DNA of 39,655 bases. It comes from a virus (taxonomy: Duplodnaviria; Caudoviricetes). The notes under the pieces were generated by a model. The model searched no databases. It saw only the letters and a program-made list of their open reading frames with translations, and was not told the DNA's origin. Below, one piece after another: positions 4,096 to 39,655 of this stretch (positions are counted from its first letter, which is position 1; each line of letters begins with the position of its first letter). The translations under genes and the position numbers were made by a program. Location of the stretch: positions 1 to 39,655 of the IMG/VR virus record IMGVR_UViG_3300032295_000873; one strand, written 5' to 3'.

Positions 4096-4503
4096 ATGAT
4101 GGAGCAAGGTGGATATAGAAAACCGAATAACCCAGCCCCAGTATCAGGCCCTGGCTCTCTTAGTCAACGTACTGATGGGGGTCCAACACAAGGTGCAACC
4201 TATATGTCAGGATTACCATATGGACAAGGACAACAAAACTACGACAACCAAGTAGCAGCGCCTATGGCTGGTAATCCAATTCCTAAAATGGAAATGCCAA
4301 CACCACTAAGTGCCCCTACCGCTCGTCCTTCAGAACCAATTACTGCAGGTATTGACCGTGGTCCTGGTCCAGGTTCAGAAGCAATGGGAGTCTTGCCTAA
4401 TAGGGCTTTTACAATTACAGAAGTATTTAGAAATTTAATTGCCTATGACCCATCTGGAGATTCAGAATTAATTTATAGACAATTAGTTGACGAAGGGTAT
4501 TAA
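4096..4503 (+). CDS. Pro/Gly-rich hypothetical virion-associated protein
   Basis: RBS AGGAGG; stop overlaps next start. Confidence 0.7.
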   Translation: MMEQGGYRKPNNPAPVSGPGSLSQRTDGGPTQGATYMSGLPYGQGQQNYDNQVAAPMAGNPIPKMEMPTPLSAPTARPSEPITAGIDRGPGPGSEAMGVLPNRAFTITEVFRNLIAYDPSGDSELIYRQLVDEGY

Positions 4504-7500
4504 TGTCTGTAAAAGTTAATTTTATAGTAGCAAAGACTAACCCTAATCTTTATGCTGCTGCTAAGGCTGCCAACTTGCCACAAGACCAAGTATCTCAATT
4601 AGAACAATTTTCTTGGACAGTTGATAAAAATAAAAAACTTAATCAATTATCTACTGATGCTGCCAGAAAAGAATATAACGAGTTAGACCCAGAGATTCAA
4701 AATAAACTTAAGTATTTATATCCTAAAGCAGATTACATGCAAGCACCACCAGATGCTAGCGACTATGCATTAGGTGCATTAAAGACTGTTGGTAAGATTG
4801 CAGCAAGCCCATTGATTGGTATATTCAAGGCTGCTGGTGTTTACAATAGAGTAATCAATACTCCTTACCTAGTAGCACGTCAGGCTTCTCAAGGTGAAGG
4901 TTTGTTTTCTATGCAAACCTGGACAGATGCTTGGGATGGTCGTAGAATATTTGACCACGGTGCACTGGCTGAAACTATTAATACTTTTGGTAATGAAAGA
5001 GTAGAGGTTGCAAAAGGATTTCTAGCGGGTAAAACACCTGGAGAAATTATTGCAGCATCTGGCGGTACAGTAAATCAAAAACTATTAGATGCTTTAGAAG
5101 AGTCACTTAACAATCCAGATGAGTTTAAGCAAGTAATGGATGGCGTTAAGTATGCACAGGTATCTCCAGGTAGAGATATAGCCCGTTCATTCTATAGCAA
5201 AAATCCAAATAGCAGTACTGCTACTGGAGATTACATTGATGGTAAAACTAAAGACCTGTCAGGTAAAATAGATTTCTTTTATCAATTAGCAATTGACCCA
5301 CTTACTTATTTTACTGGTGGTTTATCAAGCGCAGCCCGTGCTGGTACTAGAGCAGTAAAGACAATACAAAAATTTCCAAATGCCACTGGTGTTAAAATGG
5401 TATTTGATGATGAAAAAAATGGTGTTCGTAAGTTATGGGATGACCAACTTGGCCCTAAGGTTTCAAACCTTATAGATGCTAAAAAAGCAGGGGATAGAGT
5501 AGCGGCAAAAACAATTACCGATGATATTAAATTAAATCATCCTGCATATAATAACGATTCAGCAATTAAAATGTTAGAAGAAAATAATATTGTTAATGCT
5601 AAATCTGCAATAGATTACTTTTCACAAGCAGAAAAACTACCTTACTTTATGGGTGGTCGTGTTGATGGTATTCAATACTCCCGCAATGGTATTGCTACTG
5701 CAAATACTCATAGAAAATTAGCAATAGGTGTTTCTAAGTTTACAGAAAAGTTTATTAACCCAAAAGTTTTTGGTACTCCTGAAGAAGCGCTTAAAGCATC
5801 TGATGATGCCTGGGATTCTTTGCTTAAACAGTCTCCAGAAAATTCATCTATTGCTCCAGAAGCAACTGACTTAAAGAAATTTCATGATAGTTTAACATTA
5901 AAACAAAAACTTCAGGTTGGTTTATCTCGTCAACTTACCCGTTCTCCACAAAATGCTGTAATAAAACTAGGAACAGATGCAGTAGAAACTGCTAATGCCT
6001 TTAGATTAACCGCAAGACAGGTTATGCCTAAAGACATGGCTGAGTTTATGACTCAAAAGTTTATTACATCTACACAAAATGACCAGATTTCTATTATGAA
6101 AGCAATTGACTACGCAATTATTGAGCGTTATGGCATTACAGGCGTACCTGGTGGTAAAGATTTAGCAATGGAAATCATAAATACCAAGTATGGTATATCC
6201 AATGCCATGGATGAGGCTGCAGAATTAGCAGTTCGTCCAGATGTAGCCCAAATTTTATCTAAAGATACAATAGTTTATCGTGATGGTGTGGCTTATAAAA
6301 AAACTGGAAGCGTTATTCAACCATTCCAAGAAACAAATGCAGTTGCTGCTCTTGATTACTTTATGTTAAGTGAGTATGCATTCCAAGCAAAAAGAAAAAA
6401 GAACTTTTTATTAAGCATACAAGGTTCAACTTCATCTAAACTTGCAACTGAATTAGTAAATGGTTGGTCTTTGTTTACTCTTTTCCCACGATTGGGTATA
6501 CGAAGTGCTATTGATGAGTCAATGATGTACATCCTTACCGCACCTGCTAAAAACATAATGGATGTTTTTGTTCCTGGATTTTTAAAAGGAGATGTAGGTC
6601 TTGGTAGAAAAGGAAGCATAGCCTCAAATATTGCTTCATCATATTCTGGCTCTAAGTCTGGCGAAAAGTTACGTCAAGGTCTTGCTCGTAAACTTGGACT
6701 CAAGAATCCAGCAGAGGCTTTAGATATTCAGGCTAGAGAAAATGCGCTCATTAAATATGCTAAAGAAAAAGGACTGGCAGATACTGGCGAGTTAACTTCA
6801 AGCCAACGTAAATATGCACAAGCCCTTGCTGCTACAGATATTTACAATAGTAGATTGATGGGCAAGTTAGACCCAGATGAAAAAGATTATTTAGTTCAAG
6901 CCCTTGCTTTAAATTCACAATATTTGGGTGCAGCAACTCGTTCTATTACCAGCGCTGCCAACATTACTGGCAAGCAAGCCCCAGAGGTTGCTGAAGAGTT
7001 TTTAGATATGAATCAATTTGACCGCTTGCTTAAGTCCCTTCAGGAAAACTTTAGAGTCGAAGGTGCAGCAAAAGGTAAAGATGTTGATGTTTCAAAGTTA
7101 GTAAGAGATGGCGTTCTTAATGGTATGGGCGTTGGAGTTATACACTTTGAAAACTTTGTAAAACGTTTTTATGGAAACCGTAAAAACGTTTATGGTTTTC
7201 TACAAACCTATAACTTTAATCCAGCCACAGTATTCTTAAACAATAATGCTTTAAGAGATACTAACGACTGGAATCGTGCCAGAAATCAATTACTATCTAA
7301 GGTAGGCATTGAGCGCAATGTAGAGGGAGTCTTTGATGACGTTACTCAACAGGCTATGGATGAACTACAAGGTAAATTTTTATATAGTATAAGAGATAAA
7401 AAGGCTTTAGATAGTTTCTTGCAAAGCAGAGGTTACACAAATACAAGACGCTCAGAAGGCGTAGATGATATTGATATTGCCCGTGACTTAGTAGAACAAA

Positions 7501-9674
7501 TCTTGGCTGATACTTATAGATATTTCCATGGAGATTCTCAAAAGTATAATCAAGGATTAGTTGATGCTATTAAATCAAAGCATAGCCAAATTGTAAAAGA
7601 TAAACCAGAGTTTGTTCCTGGTGCTTGGCGTGAAGCAGCGAAGGCTATAACATACGATGAGTTTACTGAGTTAACTAAAGGATTCCAACCATCTGGAAAG
7701 ATGTATACATCCCTTGCAATAGAGGGATTAGATGACTTTGGTAATCTTTACACACGCTTTGGTAACAAAGCAATGGAAATTATGGACCGTCAGGTTACTG
7801 GAATTATCCGTCAGCCTGCAACTATGGTTACTTACCTAAGACTTCGTAAGTTTTATGCACAATCAGAAAAGCAATATACCGAAGATTTGCTTAAACAAAT
7901 AGAAGCAGAAGCAATTCAAAGTGGAAAAAGTTTTAATAGAGCAGATGCTTATCAGATTGCTGAAGTACAAGCACAGAAGTATTTCTCTGAAATATCTATA
8001 CAGCAGGCTGCAGATGAAGTATTAAAGTTTGTTGATAACCCAACTATTCGTTCTAATTTTTCTGTATCAGCCAGAAACGTAGGCAGATACTATCGTGCTA
8101 CTGAAGATTTTTGGCGCCGTATCTATCGCTTGAAAGATGTAGCACCACGAGTCTTATATCGTACTAGATTGGCGCACCTAGGCTTAGATGCTGCTGGTGG
8201 TATATATGAAGACCAAAATGGTGACCCATATGTAATGATGCCTATGGATGATATTATCTTTAAGACAGTAGATAATGTTGTTCGTACATTAACACCTGGT
8301 GAAGCAGGATTTGGTCAACCAATATTTAATGACTTTACCATGAAGTTAAAATTGGCTAACCCATCCTTTACTCCAGATGCAGGTTTACCTACACTATCTG
8401 GACCAATTGGTGCACTAAGCGTTCTTGCTATGAAGAACATACTTGGTCAAGTTGGCGGTACTGCTGGAGTAAAAGCAGGAGAAGAGTTAGATAACTTTGC
8501 GCTAGGTAGCATTGGCGATAACATTGATATTGTAAGAGCAATTGTGCCTTCATCTTTGTTAAAGTTATATGCAATACTTCCACAAAACGAGAAGAGTAGA
8601 CAAGAAGCCACAGCAGCAATGCAGGCTATTGCATACAATGCATCTCAGGGCTATATGTTAGACCCTAGTGCCACTGACCAAGAGAAGTTTACATACTTAA
8701 AGAACATTCGTTTATCAGCACACAATATCGTAGTTATGCGTTCTATCTTGGGATTAATATCCCCAGTTGCTCCATCTATGCAAGAGTCAATAGATGTACC
8801 TAGTTACTTAAAAGAAGTAGGTATTACTGGATTACGTCCAGAGTTCTTTGATATATTAAATGCAGTTACTCAAAAGTATAAGGGTGATATCCAAGACCCA
8901 TACGAGTTAGCAGTGGCTACATTTATTGGCAAGAATCCAGGAAAGTTAATCTACACAGTATCTCGTGATGATAAGAAAACCAATGTTATTATTAATAAAA
9001 CAAAAGAATTAAAAAACTGGGCTATAGAAAATAATGATAATATTAAAGCCTACGGTGAGTCAGCATTTATATTTGCACCAAATACTGGCGACTTTGATGT
9101 TAGTACTTATGCTTGGCTAGAGGGTGCTGGACTACTAGGCAATAAAGACCTAGAAACTTATTATAGAGATGTATTGGTTTCTAAAGATAAACAAGCCTAT
9201 TACGATATAGCCAAAGAAGAGAAAGCATTTCTTGCTACATCTGGTGATACTATGTTGCGTAAGGCTATGATTGCAACCTCTACTAGAAGACGCAATGCAT
9301 TAAAGGCTAGCAACCCATTATTAGAATCAGCACTTGTTGGTGGCGGTAATGAGGTTGGCAGCGAGTTAGCAATGTTAACTAGCATAGAACAAATCTTAAT
9401 AGATAATAAAATTGCTGTAGATGCTGGTACTAAACAAAGAATGGCTATGGTAAGTTCAAGATTAAGACAATTTGTTTCCCTTGCCAATGACCCATCAAAG
9501 AGAGAACTATCTAACTTCTCTGATATTAAAAGAGAGATGAAACAAGATATCGAGGCTTTGATTAAAGACTTAGAGACTGGAGACCCAATTTTGAAAGAAG
9601 CAAACAGGGCTGTATTCAGGGCTATCCTTGATTTCTACTCCCGTGATACTTACACTGCAAGGGAGAGATTCTAA
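4503..9674 (+). CDS. Large (1723 aa) probable internal virion/ejection protein
   Basis: Size, position in the structural operon and helical composition; no catalytic motif recognised. Confidence 0.6.
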   Translation: MSVKVNFIVAKTNPNLYAAAKAANLPQDQVSQLEQFSWTVDKNKKLNQLSTDAARKEYNELDPEIQNKLKYLYPKADYMQAPPDASDYALGALKTVGKIAASPLIGIFKAAGVYNRVINTPYLVARQASQGEGLFSMQTWTDAWDGRRIFDHGALAETINTFGNERVEVAKGFLAGKTPGEIIAASGGTVNQKLLDALEESLNNPDEFKQVMDGVKYAQVSPGRDIARSFYSKNPNSSTATGDYIDGKTKDLSGKIDFFYQLAIDPLTYFTGGLSSAARAGTRAVKTIQKFPNATGVKMVFDDEKNGVRKLWDDQLGPKVSNLIDAKKAGDRVAAKTITDDIKLNHPAYNNDSAIKMLEENNIVNAKSAIDYFSQAEKLPYFMGGRVDGIQYSRNGIATANTHRKLAIGVSKFTEKFINPKVFGTPEEALKASDDAWDSLLKQSPENSSIAPEATDLKKFHDSLTLKQKLQVGLSRQLTRSPQNAVIKLGTDAVETANAFRLTARQVMPKDMAEFMTQKFITSTQNDQISIMKAIDYAIIERYGITGVPGGKDLAMEIINTKYGISNAMDEAAELAVRPDVAQILSKDTIVYRDGVAYKKTGSVIQPFQETNAVAALDYFMLSEYAFQAKRKKNFLLSIQGSTSSKLATELVNGWSLFTLFPRLGIRSAIDESMMYILTAPAKNIMDVFVPGFLKGDVGLGRKGSIASNIASSYSGSKSGEKLRQGLARKLGLKNPAEALDIQARENALIKYAKEKGLADTGELTSSQRKYAQALAATDIYNSRLMGKLDPDEKDYLVQALALNSQYLGAATRSITSAANITGKQAPEVAEEFLDMNQFDRLLKSLQENFRVEGAAKGKDVDVSKLVRDGVLNGMGVGVIHFENFVKRFYGNRKNVYGFLQTYNFNPATVFLNNNALRDTNDWNRARNQLLSKVGIERNVEGVFDDVTQQAMDELQGKFLYSIRDKKALDSFLQSRGYTNTRRSEGVDDIDIARDLVEQILADTYRYFHGDSQKYNQGLVDAIKSKHSQIVKDKPEFVPGAWREAAKAITYDEFTELTKGFQPSGKMYTSLAIEGLDDFGNLYTRFGNKAMEIMDRQVTGIIRQPATMVTYLRLRKFYAQSEKQYTEDLLKQIEAEAIQSGKSFNRADAYQIAEVQAQKYFSEISIQQAADEVLKFVDNPTIRSNFSVSARNVGRYYRATEDFWRRIYRLKDVAPRVLYRTRLAHLGLDAAGGIYEDQNGDPYVMMPMDDIIFKTVDNVVRTLTPGEAGFGQPIFNDFTMKLKLANPSFTPDAGLPTLSGPIGALSVLAMKNILGQVGGTAGVKAGEELDNFALGSIGDNIDIVRAIVPSSLLKLYAILPQNEKSRQEATAAMQAIAYNASQGYMLDPSATDQEKFTYLKNIRLSAHNIVVMRSILGLISPVAPSMQESIDVPSYLKEVGITGLRPEFFDILNAVTQKYKGDIQDPYELAVATFIGKNPGKLIYTVSRDDKKTNVIINKTKELKNWAIENNDNIKAYGESAFIFAPNTGDFDVSTYAWLEGAGLLGNKDLETYYRDVLVSKDKQAYYDIAKEEKAFLATSGDTMLRKAMIATSTRRRNALKASNPLLESALVGGGNEVGSELAMLTSIEQILIDNKIAVDAGTKQRMAMVSSRLRQFVSLANDPSKRELSNFSDIKREMKQDIEALIKDLETGDPILKEANRAVFRAILDFYSRDTYTARERF

Positions 9675-26603: not shown

Positions 26604-26795
26604 ATGATAGACAAAGAAAAAGCAAAACAAATTGCACTCTCATACATTCGTGCCGCTGCTGCCGCAGCAGTTGCGTTGTATACAGCAGGACAACGTGACC
26701 CTAAAGTATTAGCAGCAGCATTTGTTGCAGGTTTAGTTGGTCCTATCCTGAAAGCATTGGATAAGTCAGCGCCAGAATTTGGGCTTACTAAGTAG
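26604..26795 (+). CDS. Holin-like small membrane protein
   Basis: 63 aa, two hydrophobic segments, RBS AAGGAG. Confidence 0.65.
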   Translation: MIDKEKAKQIALSYIRAAAAAAVALYTAGQRDPKVLAAAFVAGLVGPILKALDKSAPEFGLTK

Positions 26796-26802
26796 CACTA
26801 GC

Positions 26803-26854
26803 AAAACAAAACCCCCCTTCCAGTTTTATCTGGTCGGGGGGTCTTTTTTGTTTT
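26803..26854. terminator. Bidirectional intrinsic terminator between convergent arms
   Basis: A tract, ACCCCCC..CCAG/CTGG..GGGGGGT stem, T tract. Confidence 0.85.
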
Positions 26855-26873
26855 CTAGATAGTCTTCCCCTAA

Positions 26874-27257
26874 CTACCTAGATAACTCTGCTACTATCTC
26901 AAATACTTTATCGGGTCTAATTAGATAGCCCTTGCTTGGGTTGGGCGGTATGTTACAGGTAATTGGCTTGCCATGTATGCTAACAGCATGCCTTAAATCT
27001 TTTGTTGGCACAATAAATATTGAACCTTCTAATACAAATGCCCAGTAGTCAGCCTTAGTTGCAGATAATCCTGATGGGTACCACTCATCATTGTTGTGTG
27101 ACCAGCACACAGTTTCTATATATAAGTTACCAGTGTTTTTCCACTTAAGGTCTGTCTTAACTTCAATTGTTTTACCACCAGTTAGTAGTTCATTAACTAA
27201 TGCTTCGCCTTCATGTCCAACGGACAGGTCTAAATCAAAGTCAGATAGTTTTGACAT
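26874..27257 (-). CDS. PD-(D/E)XK-like protein
   Basis: GHEGE...IEVKTD...TGNLYIE...SGL.ATKADYW; start at MSKLSDF. Confidence 0.6.
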   Translation of the reverse strand: MSKLSDFDLDLSVGHEGEALVNELLTGGKTIEVKTDLKWKNTGNLYIETVCWSHNNDEWYPSGLSATKADYWAFVLEGSIFIVPTKDLRHAVSIHGKPITCNIPPNPSKGYLIRPDKVFEIVAELSR

Positions 27258-33750: not shown

Positions 33751-34749
33751 CTATACTCCCAATAATTCAAGGGCTTTGGATTTAATACTATCATTACGTC
33801 CAGCCATTGTGCTAATCGCAAGGTTCTTGCCCTTAGCATTGTAGTCAGCCCACTCTATAACTGCATGCCACATACCAAACTCAGTGCCTCGTATGTTTTC
33901 TTGGGTAGGTGATTTTGAATAGATATTGAATGCTAAGTTTCTAGCGTTCATAGCATTTGTATATTGTTTTTTCTCACCTGTAGATAGCAGTTCATATGGT
34001 GCTTCTTCTAACTTAGAAGGCAATCCAAACACACGCTTGAAATAATTCTTAGCATGTTCATGGCTTGCTTGTCTGTCTAATAAAGTATCAGCCAACGCTG
34101 TGTAATCATTAGCCATATCATAGGTTAGTTGTATGATGTTAGCAATCTCTGATACTGATAGCACTGCGTTGCTTGTATGGTTTAAACTATAAGTATATTT
34201 ATTCTTGTTTTTATATATCTTATTGATTTGATTCATACAAAATAAACGCTCAATCACTGGTTTAATTATGACTGAACTGCTGCCATCATGGCTGGTCCTG
34301 GCTAGTAAGAAGGCTGAGTGTGGGTCATTGGCTATTGTCATCTCCATTGGAGTTTCCATTAGCATCCAAACTTTTGCACCACCATCATACTCACCTGCTG
34401 CTGCGTATCTAATACCACTAGAGTCAATAAGATTATCTAGTGTGCTAAAGATTTCAGCATTCTGAAATACTTTGTAGCGGTTACCTACTACACCAATGGC
34501 AGATGTCTGTCCATATGGGTCTGTTTTAATAACTGCTTTTTTGTTTTCAATTGGAATATAATCTTTAACCAAATTTATTCCATTCTCACCTGGAATTGTA
34601 TAGGTTGCAGTTATATCATGCAATGATACTGACCAGTCTAATCCTGCTTGACTGGCTACCTCACTGGCTGATGTAGCCTCTACTGCTACACCTGCTTTGT
34701 GCCATGCTGCTTTGCGTGCAGTTCCGTGTATGAGTGTATCAGTTGTCAT
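33751..34749 (-). CDS. DUF932 phage/plasmid-like protein
   Basis: AWH, AGLDWSV, GVVG.RY...QN, TSHDGS, R.FCMNQ, HT, GT.FGMWHAVIEW.D. Confidence 0.85.
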   Translation of the reverse strand: MTTDTLIHGTARKAAWHKAGVAVEATSASEVASQAGLDWSVSLHDITATYTIPGENGINLVKDYIPIENKKAVIKTDPYGQTSAIGVVGNRYKVFQNAEIFSTLDNLIDSSGIRYAAAGEYDGGAKVWMLMETPMEMTIANDPHSAFLLARTSHDGSSSVIIKPVIERLFCMNQINKIYKNKNKYTYSLNHTSNAVLSVSEIANIIQLTYDMANDYTALADTLLDRQASHEHAKNYFKRVFGLPSKLEEAPYELLSTGEKKQYTNAMNARNLAFNIYSKSPTQENIRGTEFGMWHAVIEWADYNAKGKNLAISTMAGRNDSIKSKALELLGV

Positions 34750-35287
34750 CTGACACCTCTTGTACCTCTATTGAGTAAATAGAATCAACAACCTTTGAGT
34801 GTAGTTGTTCAGCCATCTCTTTGAAACTTCCTGCTGGCCACTCTGCTGCAAAGACTCTGCTTAATAATTTTGCTAATGCATACTCTGGATTAAGAGTAAG
34901 CACATCAAGCAACATAGTCTTGGCTAGTTCTACTTCTTCGGTTTGATATAGGTATCCACAAAATACTGTGGCTAATGGAACTGCTTTATCCTTAACAACA
35001 ACATTACCAAGTAATGATATGTATTCACCTACATAATCAATGTCCTTTTCTAATTGGACACCCATTAAGAAGTCACGGATATTTAGATTGTCATTGGTAG
35101 CAATGGCTACTTCTGCTATATGTTTGGCTGATGGTATAACACCATCTGCTAGTCCATCGATTGCTTTACGAATGTCCTCAACAATACGAACATTTGTATC
35201 ACGGTCCTCTGGATTGTATTTACCTTCTTGATTAATCAACTCATCCTTAACTTCAGTGCGAAGTGGATTGTAGTCTATCTCTATCAT
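34739..35287 (-). CDS. DUF4192-like protein
   Basis: IRDF...A.PLAT....Y...A...L..VL..NPEYALAKLL pattern recalled from the actinobacterial family. Confidence 0.6.
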   Translation of the reverse strand: MIEIDYNPLRTEVKDELINQEGKYNPEDRDTNVRIVEDIRKAIDGLADGVIPSAKHIAEVAIATNDNLNIRDFLMGVQLEKDIDYVGEYISLLGNVVVKDKAVPLATVFCGYLYQTEEVELAKTMLLDVLTLNPEYALAKLLSRVFAAEWPAGSFKEMAEQLHSKVVDSIYSIEVQEVSDDN

Positions 35288-37000: not shown

Positions 37001-37046
37001 AAAAAAAAAGGTAGGCAGGGTGAGAGCCTAAGCCCCCACCCTGCCT
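37001..37046 (-). terminator. Intrinsic terminator
   Basis: AGGCAGGGTG/CACCCTGCCT stem with G.U extension on - strand, then U9. Confidence 0.88.
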
Positions 37047-37377: not shown

Positions 37378-37418
37378 GGGGCGGCTTCCCCTATCACGAA
37401 GTGTAGGGGAGTCGCCTT
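37378..37418 (+). promoter_or_regulatory. Long GC-rich hairpin with cGAAg loop on the template strand
   Basis: GGGGCGGC(T)TCCCCTA(T)CAC-GAA-GTGTAGGGGAGTCGCCTT; three G.T pairs form only on +. Confidence 0.6.
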
Positions 37419-37424
37419 GGTTAG

Positions 37425-37871
37425 TTAGTTGCAGTTAGGACAAACTGCGTGTTTGTTTATTGTATAGTGGCAATTAGAGCATATACACTCGAAGACTTGG
37501 AGTTCGATAGAATCCTCCAAGTCGAAGAGCCTGTCTATGAGCCATGAGGACTGCTCGAAGAATTCAGCCCTGATAGTCTTGATTTCTATACCATTGGTTC
37601 TATCGTAGTTATCAATGGTTGTTTTTTCTACATGAGTCACTACCTCACTTGAAATCCAGTCATGAGCCGAAGGCTCATCTTGGATTTTGCTCATGCTGGT
37701 ATACATTGGCTTGTATCTGTATATGTCCTCATCAACCAGTTGGTTGGCGATGACTGCGTCTCGAGCCTCTTTGGCTTCGAGGCAGTCGGCGCATAGTTCA
37801 TTCAGTTGCTGACAATGGAAGCATTCGTTCATTAGGGTAAGTTGGTTTTGAACTATGATTTCATTATTCAT
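37425..37871 (-). CDS. Cys-rich (zinc-binding) early protein
   Basis: CFHC..CADC and CSNC...CPNC; RBS AGGAGATAG; first gene of the - arm. Confidence 0.75.
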   Translation of the reverse strand: MNNEIIVQNQLTLMNECFHCQQLNELCADCLEAKEARDAVIANQLVDEDIYRYKPMYTSMSKIQDEPSAHDWISSEVVTHVEKTTIDNYDRTNGIEIKTIRAEFFEQSSWLIDRLFDLEDSIELQVFECICSNCHYTINKHAVCPNCN

Positions 37872-37897
37872 TTCTATCTCCTATTCTATATATTTCA

Positions 37898-38590
37898 CCA
37901 GCACATACTGGCGGTATCCCGTGCTCCGAATGTCAAAGCGAGCGAAGCGAAGCGGTAAGGCGAGAGCGTAGTTCGGGGCATAATCTAGTGCGACTGTATA
38001 TGGCTGTTACACGCATGGCGTTAGCCATGGGCGAGCGTGGTAACGCGAGTCAGCCATAGGAGCATATGCCCCTGCTCGAAGCCGTTGACAAAGGAGTAGG
38101 GTTAAGCGGGCTGCGAGTAGCCGTTAAGCCGAGCCAGAGCGAGGTAGGCTACGAGTGTAGGCTCGAACAGAAACTGGCGATAGCCAGTGAGAGCCGTGGC
38201 CTGCGTCCGACTGTGTGTGTTGGTAGGTGAGCGTATTGCGTGTAGGGGCTGTGCACCGTAACGCTTGGAGCGAACACCAATACTCTTAGCCGATTGCAAT
38301 TCTGCGAATGCCAAAGGCATTCCAGCGCAGAGTTGCAGATGAGGCTTAGAGCATGCACAAGGAACTGACATAGCAACCAGTTCTGATTTTGTTTTTAGTT
38401 TTAACTGAGGCGCCCATTGTGCTTGCACTGGCGCCGAAGACTGCTGTCCGCTCAGCGTCCATCTGTACTGTACAAGAAGGCTCTGTAAAGTCTTATACTG
38501 TTCTAATCTTGACCCCAGATTGATTAATACTGGGCTGAGTATGTATATGTATCTACATAAAAGATTTTCCCGTACAGCAGTAGCAGTATA
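37898..38590 (+). other. Large structured non-coding element (ssDNA structure or ncRNA)
   Basis: More than a dozen nested helices found by eye; two sampled 60-nt lines (37921, 38101) are 60% GC against an AT-rich genome; no credible ORF. Confidence 0.75.
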
Positions 38591-38713
38591 TACAGTGTCC
38601 TAATATGTCCTAATTTGTATAGGTTTTTTGCATGCTTTAAAAAATACTTTCTTTTAAAACGTCCGTTTTACCTGTTTGGACAGATTATACTATATAGAGG
38701 CTGTTTCTTTTCT

Positions 38714-38769
38714 TAACAGTAGCAAGTCCTTGAGGGACTTGCGTTACAGGCTGTATCTAATTACTGTTA
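38714..38769 (+). promoter_or_regulatory. Structured leader upstream of terminase
   Basis: GCAAGTCC/GGACTTGC hairpin nested in TAACAGTA/TACTGTTA. Confidence 0.5.
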
Positions 38770-38794
38770 CAACTGATGAAAACGGGACAGGACT

Positions 38795-39655
38795 ATGACA
38801 TTTACAAAAGAGGGAAACAACCCTCAATCTTTGGCTATGGCAGGAGCAAAGGCTAAAGTTTTAGCCCTAGTGGCCGAAGGCCACTCTGTTCACAAAGCCA
38901 TGGAAATGTGTGGCAAGAAACCTGACACAGTAAGAATCTGGTGCCTCAGGGATAAGAAGTTTGCTGCCGACTTAACAGAGGCCAAGGCAACCGCAAAGGA
39001 TGCTTCCCTTGCCGCCCTAGGTATCCCCAAGGAAGAGATAGACTTCCCTCAGTTCTCGCAAATTTTTTTAAATCAAAGATTGTTTCCACACCATCAAGAT
39101 TGGATTGACTTACTAGAAGATAGGGAGCCTTCATGGCTCCACCCTAGTATGGTTTACGAAAAGAACGACCCAACCCGTCTATTGGTTAACGTGCCACCTG
39201 AGCACGCCAAGAGTACGGTGGTCACCGTAAACTACTCCACATATCGCATCGCCCTCAATCCTAATGTCCGCATAATTGTGGTTTCAAAAACGTTAGTCAA
39301 AGCACGTGAGTTCGTGTACGCAATCAAGCAGAGACTCTCCCATCCACGCTGGTTAAAGTTGCAAACAACTTTTGGCCCCGAAGGTGGTTGGAAAGAGGAT
39401 TCAGACACTTGGCGAGTTGACACCGTTTATCTTGGGAGCGATGCTAGAAATTCTAGCGAGAAGGACCCCACCATCCAAGCACTTGGTATGGGTGGGCAGA
39501 TTTATGGAGCACGTGCTGACCTCATCATTCTTGATGACTGTATTACTACAGCAAACGCACATGAACATGAAAAGCAAATCAACTGGTTACAAAAAGAAGT
39601 TATTACCCGTCTGGGTAAAAATGGTAAGTTACTAATCGTAGGGACACGAATTGCC
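38795..39655 (+). CDS. terL: Terminase N-terminal part: HTH-like domain plus ATPase (630 aa when circularised; absent from ORF track)
   Basis: Open frame from ATG 38795 to the window end; Walker A variant VPPEHAKST; in frame with 2..1291. Confidence 0.9.
   Translation, partial: MTFTKEGNNPQSLAMAGAKAKVLALVAEGHSVHKAMEMCGKKPDTVRIWCLRDKKFAADLTEAKATAKDASLAALGIPKEEIDFPQFSQIFLNQRLFPHHQDWIDLLEDREPSWLHPSMVYEKNDPTRLLVNVPPEHAKSTVVTVNYSTYRIALNPNVRIIVVSKTLVKAREFVYAIKQRLSHPRWLKLQTTFGPEGGWKEDSDTWRVDTVYLGSDARNSSEKDPTIQALGMGGQIYGARADLIILDDCITTANAHEHEKQINWLQKEVITRLGKNGKLLIVGTRIA
39397..39655. repeat. Right copy of imperfect terminal direct repeat
   Basis: Matches 1-259 without gaps. Confidence 0.95.

Follow-up and report, generated by a model that had tools for sequence, protein, structure and literature searches.

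Host-polymerase promoters that act on single-stranded DNA are known from conjugative plasmids and from ssDNA replicons, which have a built-in single-stranded stage. The origins ssoA and M13 prime toward the loop of their fold, and 6S and Ms1 RNA mimic a promoter by a long stem with a pre-opened region. Four tetraloop classes exist in DNA, and RNA has a YNMG class. The design of the plasmid Frpo promoters is described in the available sections of PMC9849209, PMC11541004, PMC12672017 and PMC13478746, and the accessible part of PMC13037366 reports that GNA and GNNA mini-hairpins are far more stable as DNA, that their loops mark ssDNA origins and N4 promoters, and that functional RNAs favour GNRA and UNCG loops.

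Here we analysed a stretch of viral DNA of 39,655 nucleotides (the window), in which a first-pass annotation had described a ~700-nt folded element with ssDNA-type loops, leaving out the -10-like box, the SSB unit that the box faces, the exchangeability of the element and the likely genome end. On balance, we favour the reading that this element holds a candidate Frpo-like fold-back promoter or primer site, used by the host polymerase on single-stranded DNA near the genome end. Our literature search found neither such an element nor a host-polymerase ssDNA promoter in a tailed actinophage; a fragment may sit in the alignments of PMC10690425, and the available part of PMC10202952 does not mention the element.

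The phage, its SSB unit and the predicted genome end

The window represents a nearly complete phage genome that has been opened within terL, with rightward structural genes (terL, portal, capsid and tail) faced by a leftward arm that encodes WhiB, a sigma factor, primase, a DnaB-like helicase, RusA, an exonuclease and DUF932. The WhiB gene and the lake-water samples carrying the phage point to a freshwater actinophage. Its nearest cultured terL relatives are the Planktophila phages E7 and F5 and the Streptomyces cluster BF phages, at ~54% identity, and no conjugation genes were detected among the 52 proteins scanned. DUF932 (TIGR03299) and DUF4192-like genes lie in the early arm at 33751-35287; DUF932 is linked to plasmid leading regions. 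Positions 1-260 repeat the terL stretch 39397-39655 with differences and no exact overlap, which is a circularly permuted assembly joining two strain variants. The lowest folding z of the genome (-6.5) was seen at 26751-26950, where the two arms converge, probably at a bidirectional terminator. Ahead of terL, the conserved TGTCCTA repeats, TATACT, GCAAGTCC hairpin and TGTTACA repeats at 38600-38790 are probable late promoter and terminase or regulator sites.

The features of the right end are collected in Table 1. For the Cys-rich protein encoded by the first gene of the two-gene unit no family was found, all atlas matches being below 0.85, and we regard it as a candidate immediate-early host-takeover or anti-defence factor. 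The alignment-based AF2 model of the second protein, which replaced a single-sequence model of pLDDT 52, reached pLDDT 94, and Foldseek matched it to bacterial SSBs with a probability of 1.0 and a TM of ~0.69. The SSB and Cys-rich pair, in either order, is present in 62 of 134 distinct loci, many of the others being too short, and a T run follows the pair at 43-49 nt in 40 of the 41 loci that extend far enough; in the L013 type the first ORF gave a weak match to SSB (E 0.15). The hairpin ahead of the ssb ribosome-binding site folds better on the + strand than on the mRNA strand (-34.2 versus -20.9 kcal/mol with RNA parameters, -12.6 versus -10.7 kcal/mol with DNA parameters), which suggests that the folded-strand design reaches at least 1.2 kb inward from the predicted end.

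Table 1. Features at the right end of the phage genome, in window coordinates
Feature	Position	Strand	Basis or remark
Intrinsic-terminator-like hairpin and T run closing the two-gene unit	37013..37046	-	
SSB-fold (OB) protein, 100 aa	37052..37354	-	AF2, Foldseek
cGAAg-capped hairpin preceding the ssb ribosome-binding site	37379..37416	+	
Cys-rich protein, 148 aa, first gene of the unit	37425..37871	-	no family
Folded non-coding cassette, whole variable element	37897..38385	+	folding, pair probabilities; boundaries from relatives (flanks kept, inside replaced)
Outer-helix 5' arm, pairs with 38207-38224; predicted template strand at the putative start site	37897..37914	+	probability 0.94-1.0
Promoter-like stem, 5' (template) arm including TGTCAA 37931-37936	37918..37936	+	pair probabilities
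Inner branched domain, among fetched loci only in this copy	37937..38084	+	thermodynamic support only
TTGACA, -35-like, paired, 3' arm	38085..38090	+	
TAGGGT, -10-like TAnnnT, 3' arm; wobble, bulge and mismatch opposite	38097..38102	+	TAAGGT/TAGGGT in aligned relatives
Branched domain looped out between -10 box and outer helix; cGATAg hairpin 38173-38188	38106..38204	+	conserved, without two-sided changes
Right-hand domains: long stem 38283-38351 (exchangeable tip), hairpin 38361-38384	38228..38384	+	
Spacing-conserved terminus block: T tract, GAGGCGCC 38407, GACCC 38511, TTAA to 38527, AAAGATTTTCCCGTACA 38560-38576	38400..38576	.	
Terminase large subunit, 5' part (continues at window start)	38795..39655	+	

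The element had been drawn as one unit extending to 38590, but its fold ends at ~38385, and the stretch resolves into the cassette and a separate terminus block made of short words at fixed spacing. The block is weakly folded and shows no + strand preference (38390-38590, z -2.2/-0.8 on the + strand and -3.0/-2.1 on the minus strand); the GTG-CTTG-CAC sequence assigned earlier to the large element is present, but it is part of this block and is replaced in most relatives. In 212 of 233 anchor loci, 32 nt separate GACCC-N8-TTAA from the anchor that follows it, and the BF phages have the same spacing, so that the block matches, by motif spacing next to terL, the terminal-repeat end of these phages, whose exact terminal repeats measure 275 and 264 bp. 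By this comparison the genome would end at ~38550 with a direct terminal repeat of ~150 bp (~38400-38550), and the cassette would lie just inside the end, ~165 nt from it and ahead of the early arm. Four contigs start exactly 158 nt before the anchor and others at 105-126, and since the start points differ, contig ends are weak support for this terminus. A packaging signal, one of the functions first proposed for the element, probably applies to the right-hand block and not to the cassette. Leftward promoter-like TTGAC-N17-GAnnnT sites, with G in place of the first T, occur in the BF phages (L476:8600-10095 and L477:3455-5222) and in E7 (L479), and several of them overlap short hairpins in the right-end non-coding region of these phages.

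Folding and exchange of the cassette

The ~490-nt non-coding cassette is strongly folded, and the fold is real. All the sequences named in the first-pass annotation were found at their positions or within 1 nt of them. Compared with 20 shuffles for each strand, the whole of 37898-38590 gave z values of -4.15 (+) and -2.38 (minus) with DNA parameters and of -2.52 (+) and -2.33 (minus) with RNA parameters; the two lowest-energy of the 197 200-nt windows of the genome fall within it, its z being only the second-lowest. Pair probabilities, computed on 37895-38390 and given here in the order DNA/RNA parameters, upheld seven of the proposed helices at 0.79-1.0, namely CTCC/GGAG (0.98/1.0), TGTCAA/TTGACA (0.98/0.91), GGGGCATA (0.91/0.93), TATGGCTG (0.93/0.79), the CATGGC hairpin (0.94/0.86), the ACTGGC hairpin (0.97/0.99) and TGCAATTCTGCG (0.96/0.94). 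Two others were lost: TGTGTGTG/CATGCACA had a probability of 0, the outer helix 37897-37914/38207-38224 (0.94/1.0 for 37898-37908/38213-38223) forming instead, and the GGCTGC-GA-GTAGCC hairpin reached only 0.16/0.02. Two-sided changes were seen in 2 of the 17 outer-helix pairs among nine aligned sequences, and by RNAalifold in 1 of 64 pairs of the shared right-hand part, where the sequences are too alike. The inner domain holds two overlapping GCGAAGC words (37942-37953) and the cGTTAg and tGGTAa hairpins. A search for homologs of 37937-38084 gave no viral match, and none of the 114 metagenome matches to a 17-mer from it was homologous by BLAST; the helices of this domain are predicted on thermodynamic grounds.

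Among the relatives (80 of 599 terL relatives kept, plus anchor matches), the flanks are kept while the inside of the cassette is replaced. The 168 loci with a usable boundary yielded 98 distinct intergenic regions of ~90-1000 nt in 31 clusters, of which L130 and L186, as chance anchor matches, were dropped before the cassette types were counted; for L142, a version of its contig with a better boundary was used. A relative with a 99% identical terL (L001) has an unrelated cassette, and modules recur among the cassette types in differing combinations. Region 37897-38385 is a hypervariable cassette, represented by ~30 sequence clusters at one spot and swapped between relatives. Contigs from two other samples span the folded element, which rules out an assembly artefact. 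Types L005, L013 and L058 have a conserved TCTTTCC apical loop in common.

Folding is shared across this diversity. In the 15 of 29 types that were scored (12 shuffles), the DNA z of the + strand ranged from -3.7 to -19 and was lower on the + strand in 11 types, higher in 3 and tied in 1. Pairing also covaries among homologs: in a three-way module, aligned from 12 of its 18 distinct copies, 98.8% of cells are paired and 8 of 27 pairs changed on both sides, a level reached by 0 of 500 shuffles. The three-way-junction pattern gave at least 120 viral matches among those listed (5 of 64 parts scanned), with the full module only in four family loci, and 79 matches in genomes, none with the full module; DNA similarity to cultured phages was limited to a single 32-nt chance match. 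No conserved reading frame was found, the three short ORFs being without a PHROG match and aligned relatives carrying 1-nt indels. No Rfam family reached its gathering score in the window or in 20 relative loci, and the best hit, CC3552 at E 0.33, was taken as chance. A single conserved 700-nt ncRNA, one of the options raised at the outset, is not supported by a variable cassette next to a separate block.

Strand chemistry and promoter-like boxes

Loop classes were counted on hairpins with stems of at least 5 bp in 29 types. The 90 loops of the + strand contained 7 GNA, 5 GNYA, 4 GNNNA and 11 CNNG loops and neither GNRA nor UUCG, while the minus strand had 1 GNA, 2 GNYA and no GNNNA loops and shuffles gave fewer than one of each of these three classes; with 4-bp stems in 34 types, the + strand had 12 GNA, 7 GNYA and 2 GNRA loops. 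CNNG loops are uninformative because they are strand-symmetric, and the CGAG, CAAG and TTAG loops of the cassettes also fit the RNA YNMG class and so count against a pure DNA reading. In this copy, GNYA loops (GTTA, GGTA and GATA) close all three of the capped hairpins that have Watson-Crick stems, and cGNAg caps no stem of at least 3 bp. Its middle domain had a z of -4.9 with RNA versus -3.5 with DNA parameters.

Single G·A versus C·T mismatches within helices numbered 44:7 on the + strand and 5:56 on the minus strand with RNA parameters, and 124:8 and 12:29 with DNA parameters. This count is a better strand marker than G·T pairing: the excess of G·T pairs on the + strand noticed earlier holds for this copy with DNA parameters (12 versus 4; RNA, 13 versus 10) but disappears across families, where the asymmetry of G·T versus A·C is not significant (47 versus 36, p=0.27). 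The terminator of the ssb unit is a true RNA element and serves as a control running the opposite way, with a preference for the minus strand. The loop classes and the G·A mismatches favour folding of the + strand as DNA, in support of the proposal that a single DNA strand, the template strand of the early genes, is what folds.

Unrelated cassette types have a long stem near the ribosome-binding site, at 20-75 nt from it, whose 3' arm reads TTGAY...TAnnnT. The two boxes occur together on the + strand in 19 of 34 types, 11 times at a spacing of 6-8 nt and 8 times at 15-16 nt, compared with 2 and 0 on the minus strand and with means of ~1.2 and 1.0 (maxima 5 and 4) in 300 shuffles, and 17 nt is used in 0 of the 34. 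TAnnnT lies on the 3' arm of the rule-picked first stem in 17 of 24 types, for 6.7 +/- 2.1 expected, whereas the complement of the 5' arm carries it in only 5; the rule gave no stem in 10 types, and a few of the 17 are not the intended box. Since the motif was defined after inspection of the types, which have modules in common, these counts overstate significance. The full paired motif is missing in 15 of 34 types, the two largest clusters included. Spacer sequences of the three-way module turn over, but the pairing and T-A---T are kept, and only the middle of the box varies (TAAGGT, TAGGGT, TACGCT, TACACT, TACGAT). A later scan added one unrelated type, which carries TTGACA-16-TATGTA on the same arm, the final T missing, and two new variants with TGT-TACCAT.

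In this copy TTGACA is 6 nt from TAGGGT (7 nt on the template arm), and in the three simple rods of the 15-16-nt class where it was readable the template-arm spacing is 17-19 nt. Since a 6-nt spacer is too short for sigma-70 region 4, this copy would rely on its -10 box alone. Actinobacterial promoters often have no -35 box. A consensus scan of both strands of the element detected no canonical sigma-70 promoter. WhiA was considered as a reader of the short-spaced TTGACA and rejected, as WhiA and WhiB act upstream of the -35 box according to the available part of PMC10243135. Two further variants were seen. At L018:3276-3394 a deletion of ~65 nt loses the -10 box but brings another TAGGCT to 4 nt from TTGACG, so that a TAnnnT is again present; this could reflect natural recombination or assembly collapse. 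In types L043, L058 and L545 an all-purine-rich internal loop (8x8 or 8x7) comes after the TTGACA stem, with YA at 16 nt and the final T missing.

A candidate fold-back promoter, its rivals and known systems

A single-strand promoter or priming site fits these data best among the functions first listed for the element. We propose that the + strand near the predicted right end would become single-stranded on entry or during replication, through 5'-to-3' resection or unwinding of the entering end or as a 3' overhang from linear-genome replication. Because the + strand has its 3' end at that end, resection or incomplete lagging-strand synthesis would expose it. Host AdnAB-type enzymes or a phage nuclease could carry out the resection. 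The exposed strand would fold so that the 3' arm with TTGACA...TAGGGT serves as the non-template strand and the 5' arm as the template of the leftward genes. Sigma-A holoenzyme would then bind the stem, open it at the mismatched -10 box and head to the stem base, starting leftward near 37910, ~40 nt before the ATG at 37871, and making a ~0.9-kb SSB message, an RNA primer or both. Second-strand synthesis would switch the promoter off, and the extra branched domains might hold the strand in its fold, withstand nucleases or SSB, or slow the fill-in. A bolder version, which we consider possible but doubtful, holds that these lytic dsDNA podoviruses deliberately present the first ~1.5 kb of the entering end single-stranded, that the exchangeable folded promoter makes SSB before duplex promoters act, that nuclease attack is the on-switch, and that the 6-8-nt class is a geometry undescribed for sigma-A.

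If the proposal is true, the entry or end replication of a dsDNA phage includes a programmed single-stranded step. It raises a direct question about the state of the first-entering DNA and the switching-on of the first genes in phages of a freshwater bacterial group that ranks among the most abundant, and the ~30 natural folds with one shared output would be a ready series for testing the requirements of RNA polymerase on folded DNA.

Since the boxes face rightward in duplex DNA, an ordinary promoter is a real rival, if a rather unlikely one. It would produce a structured ncRNA or, in concatemers, transcripts that run on into terL, and the fold would belong to an RNA or to a polymerase decoy of the 6S kind; TTGAY-15/16-TAnnnT is usable in this way on the + strand in 8 of 34 types. 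Its RNA could end at the hairpin and T tract at 38361-38403, and the middle domain, with its z of -4.9 under RNA parameters, and the tandem G·A pairs are also RNA-like. However, the covarying stem needs a 5' arm that lies upstream of such a start, GNRA and UUCG loops are nearly absent while GNA and GNYA are enriched, Rfam gave no match and the 17-nt spacing is avoided.

It is likewise unlikely that the cassette is a folded ssDNA end structure from which the ssb unit is not transcribed, bound by polymerase or sigma only as a primer site, as a decoy or as a roadblock, be it sso/ssi-like or a shield against nucleases and ssDNA sensors. Such a structure would account for the 300 nt of additional branched domains, for the fast exchange of cassettes, for the short spacers and for the types lacking the full motif. 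In line with it, the accessible text of PMC13037366 places mini-hairpin loops at ssDNA priming sites and describes them as poor binders of SSB, and a plasmid ssDNA promoter hairpin delays second-strand synthesis, according to that of bioRxiv 10.64898/2026.01.09.698686. On the other hand, the phage encodes its own primase and helicase, the stem keeps its 20-75 nt from the ribosome-binding site, and the unit has its own terminator, with no canonical promoter seen by consensus scan.

A structured 5' leader of the minus-strand early mRNA, serving SSB autoregulation as in T4 gene 32, appears improbable. The cassette does lie directly upstream of the SSB unit, minus-strand RNA z is also negative and the available part of PMC10690425 reports structured RNAs ahead of gp32 genes, but the G·A/C·T and loop asymmetries favour the + strand, no minus-strand promoter was found upstream in the element, and TAnnnT on the + strand would be left unexplained. 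More improbable still are N4-type hairpin promoters read by a virion RNA polymerase. GNA-capped template-strand hairpins do occur in relatives, and a large unannotated ORF among the virion genes (1723 aa, 4503-9674) is a candidate polymerase; yet sigma-type boxes are conserved instead, this copy has no GNA-capped stem, and searches of the ORF against Pfam, NCBIfam, PHROG and PDB were without a match, nor were polymerase motifs seen in it. The ORF sits between the portal and capsid genes, its nearest named atlas neighbours are LPD38/LPD3/MuF-C polyvalent proteins, and it is likely an ejected protein. Equally improbable, a packaging or terminal-repeat maturation signal would suit a cassette adjoining the putative terminal repeat and terL, but the conserved fixed-spacing signal is the right-hand block, and the cassette is replaced even at 99% terL identity.

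We then set the cassette, in its preferred reading as a fold-back promoter, beside the known systems. The right ends of the BF phages (Beephvirinae) and of E7/F5 share with it the leftward early genes, the non-coding gap, the terminal repeat and terL (54% identity), and the BF phages also the spacing of the terminus motifs in the window. However, their TTGAC words are on the minus strand, in the ordinary leftward orientation, and inspection of the folds of E7, F5 and two BF phages revealed no such cassette, so it is not universal in the wider group. 6S and Ms1 RNA differ in that the cassette has no Rfam match, DNA-type loops, and TTGAC and TAnnnT conserved as sequence. The origins ssoA, M13 and G4/alpha3 and ssiA resemble it as folded ssDNA with mini-hairpin loops, cGTTAg being the loop at the St-1/alpha3 origin in the accessible part of PMC13037366, but their replicons have a known ssDNA stage, and the boxes of the cassette point to the stem base, unlike the direction of priming at ssoA and M13. 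The early promoters of coliphage N4 are likewise template-strand DNA hairpins with GNA loops near the genome end of a podovirus-like phage. They have short stems and their own virion polymerase, whereas in this phage such a polymerase was not detected and it is the host sigma-type boxes that are conserved; the N4 hallmark, a GNA-loop stem of 5-7 bp just upstream of the start, is absent from this copy.

The closest likeness is to the plasmid ssDNA promoters Frpo1 and Frpo2 of F, ssi1-3 of ColIb-P9 and pESBL class 2/3, in which, as in the cassette, a long imperfect stem of the template strand rebuilds the -35 and -10 boxes. As in these, the stem-loop is on the template strand upstream of the genes it would serve and the -10 box (TAGGGT 38097-38102) is on the folded-back non-template arm; ssb would be among the first genes served, the element is GC-richer than its flanks and a DUF932 gene lies further along the early arm. 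The cassette differs in its spacers of 6-8 or 15-16 nt, this copy having no -35 spacing usable by sigma-70, in having no sequence similarity to any of 72,556 plasmid records, and in being a multi-branched, exchangeable element of a tailed phage with a likely actinobacterial host and no conjugation genes seen. Thus, we conclude that although the cassette departs from Frpo in the spacing of this copy and in sequence similarity, it resembles Frpo in design, as a variant and not a member.
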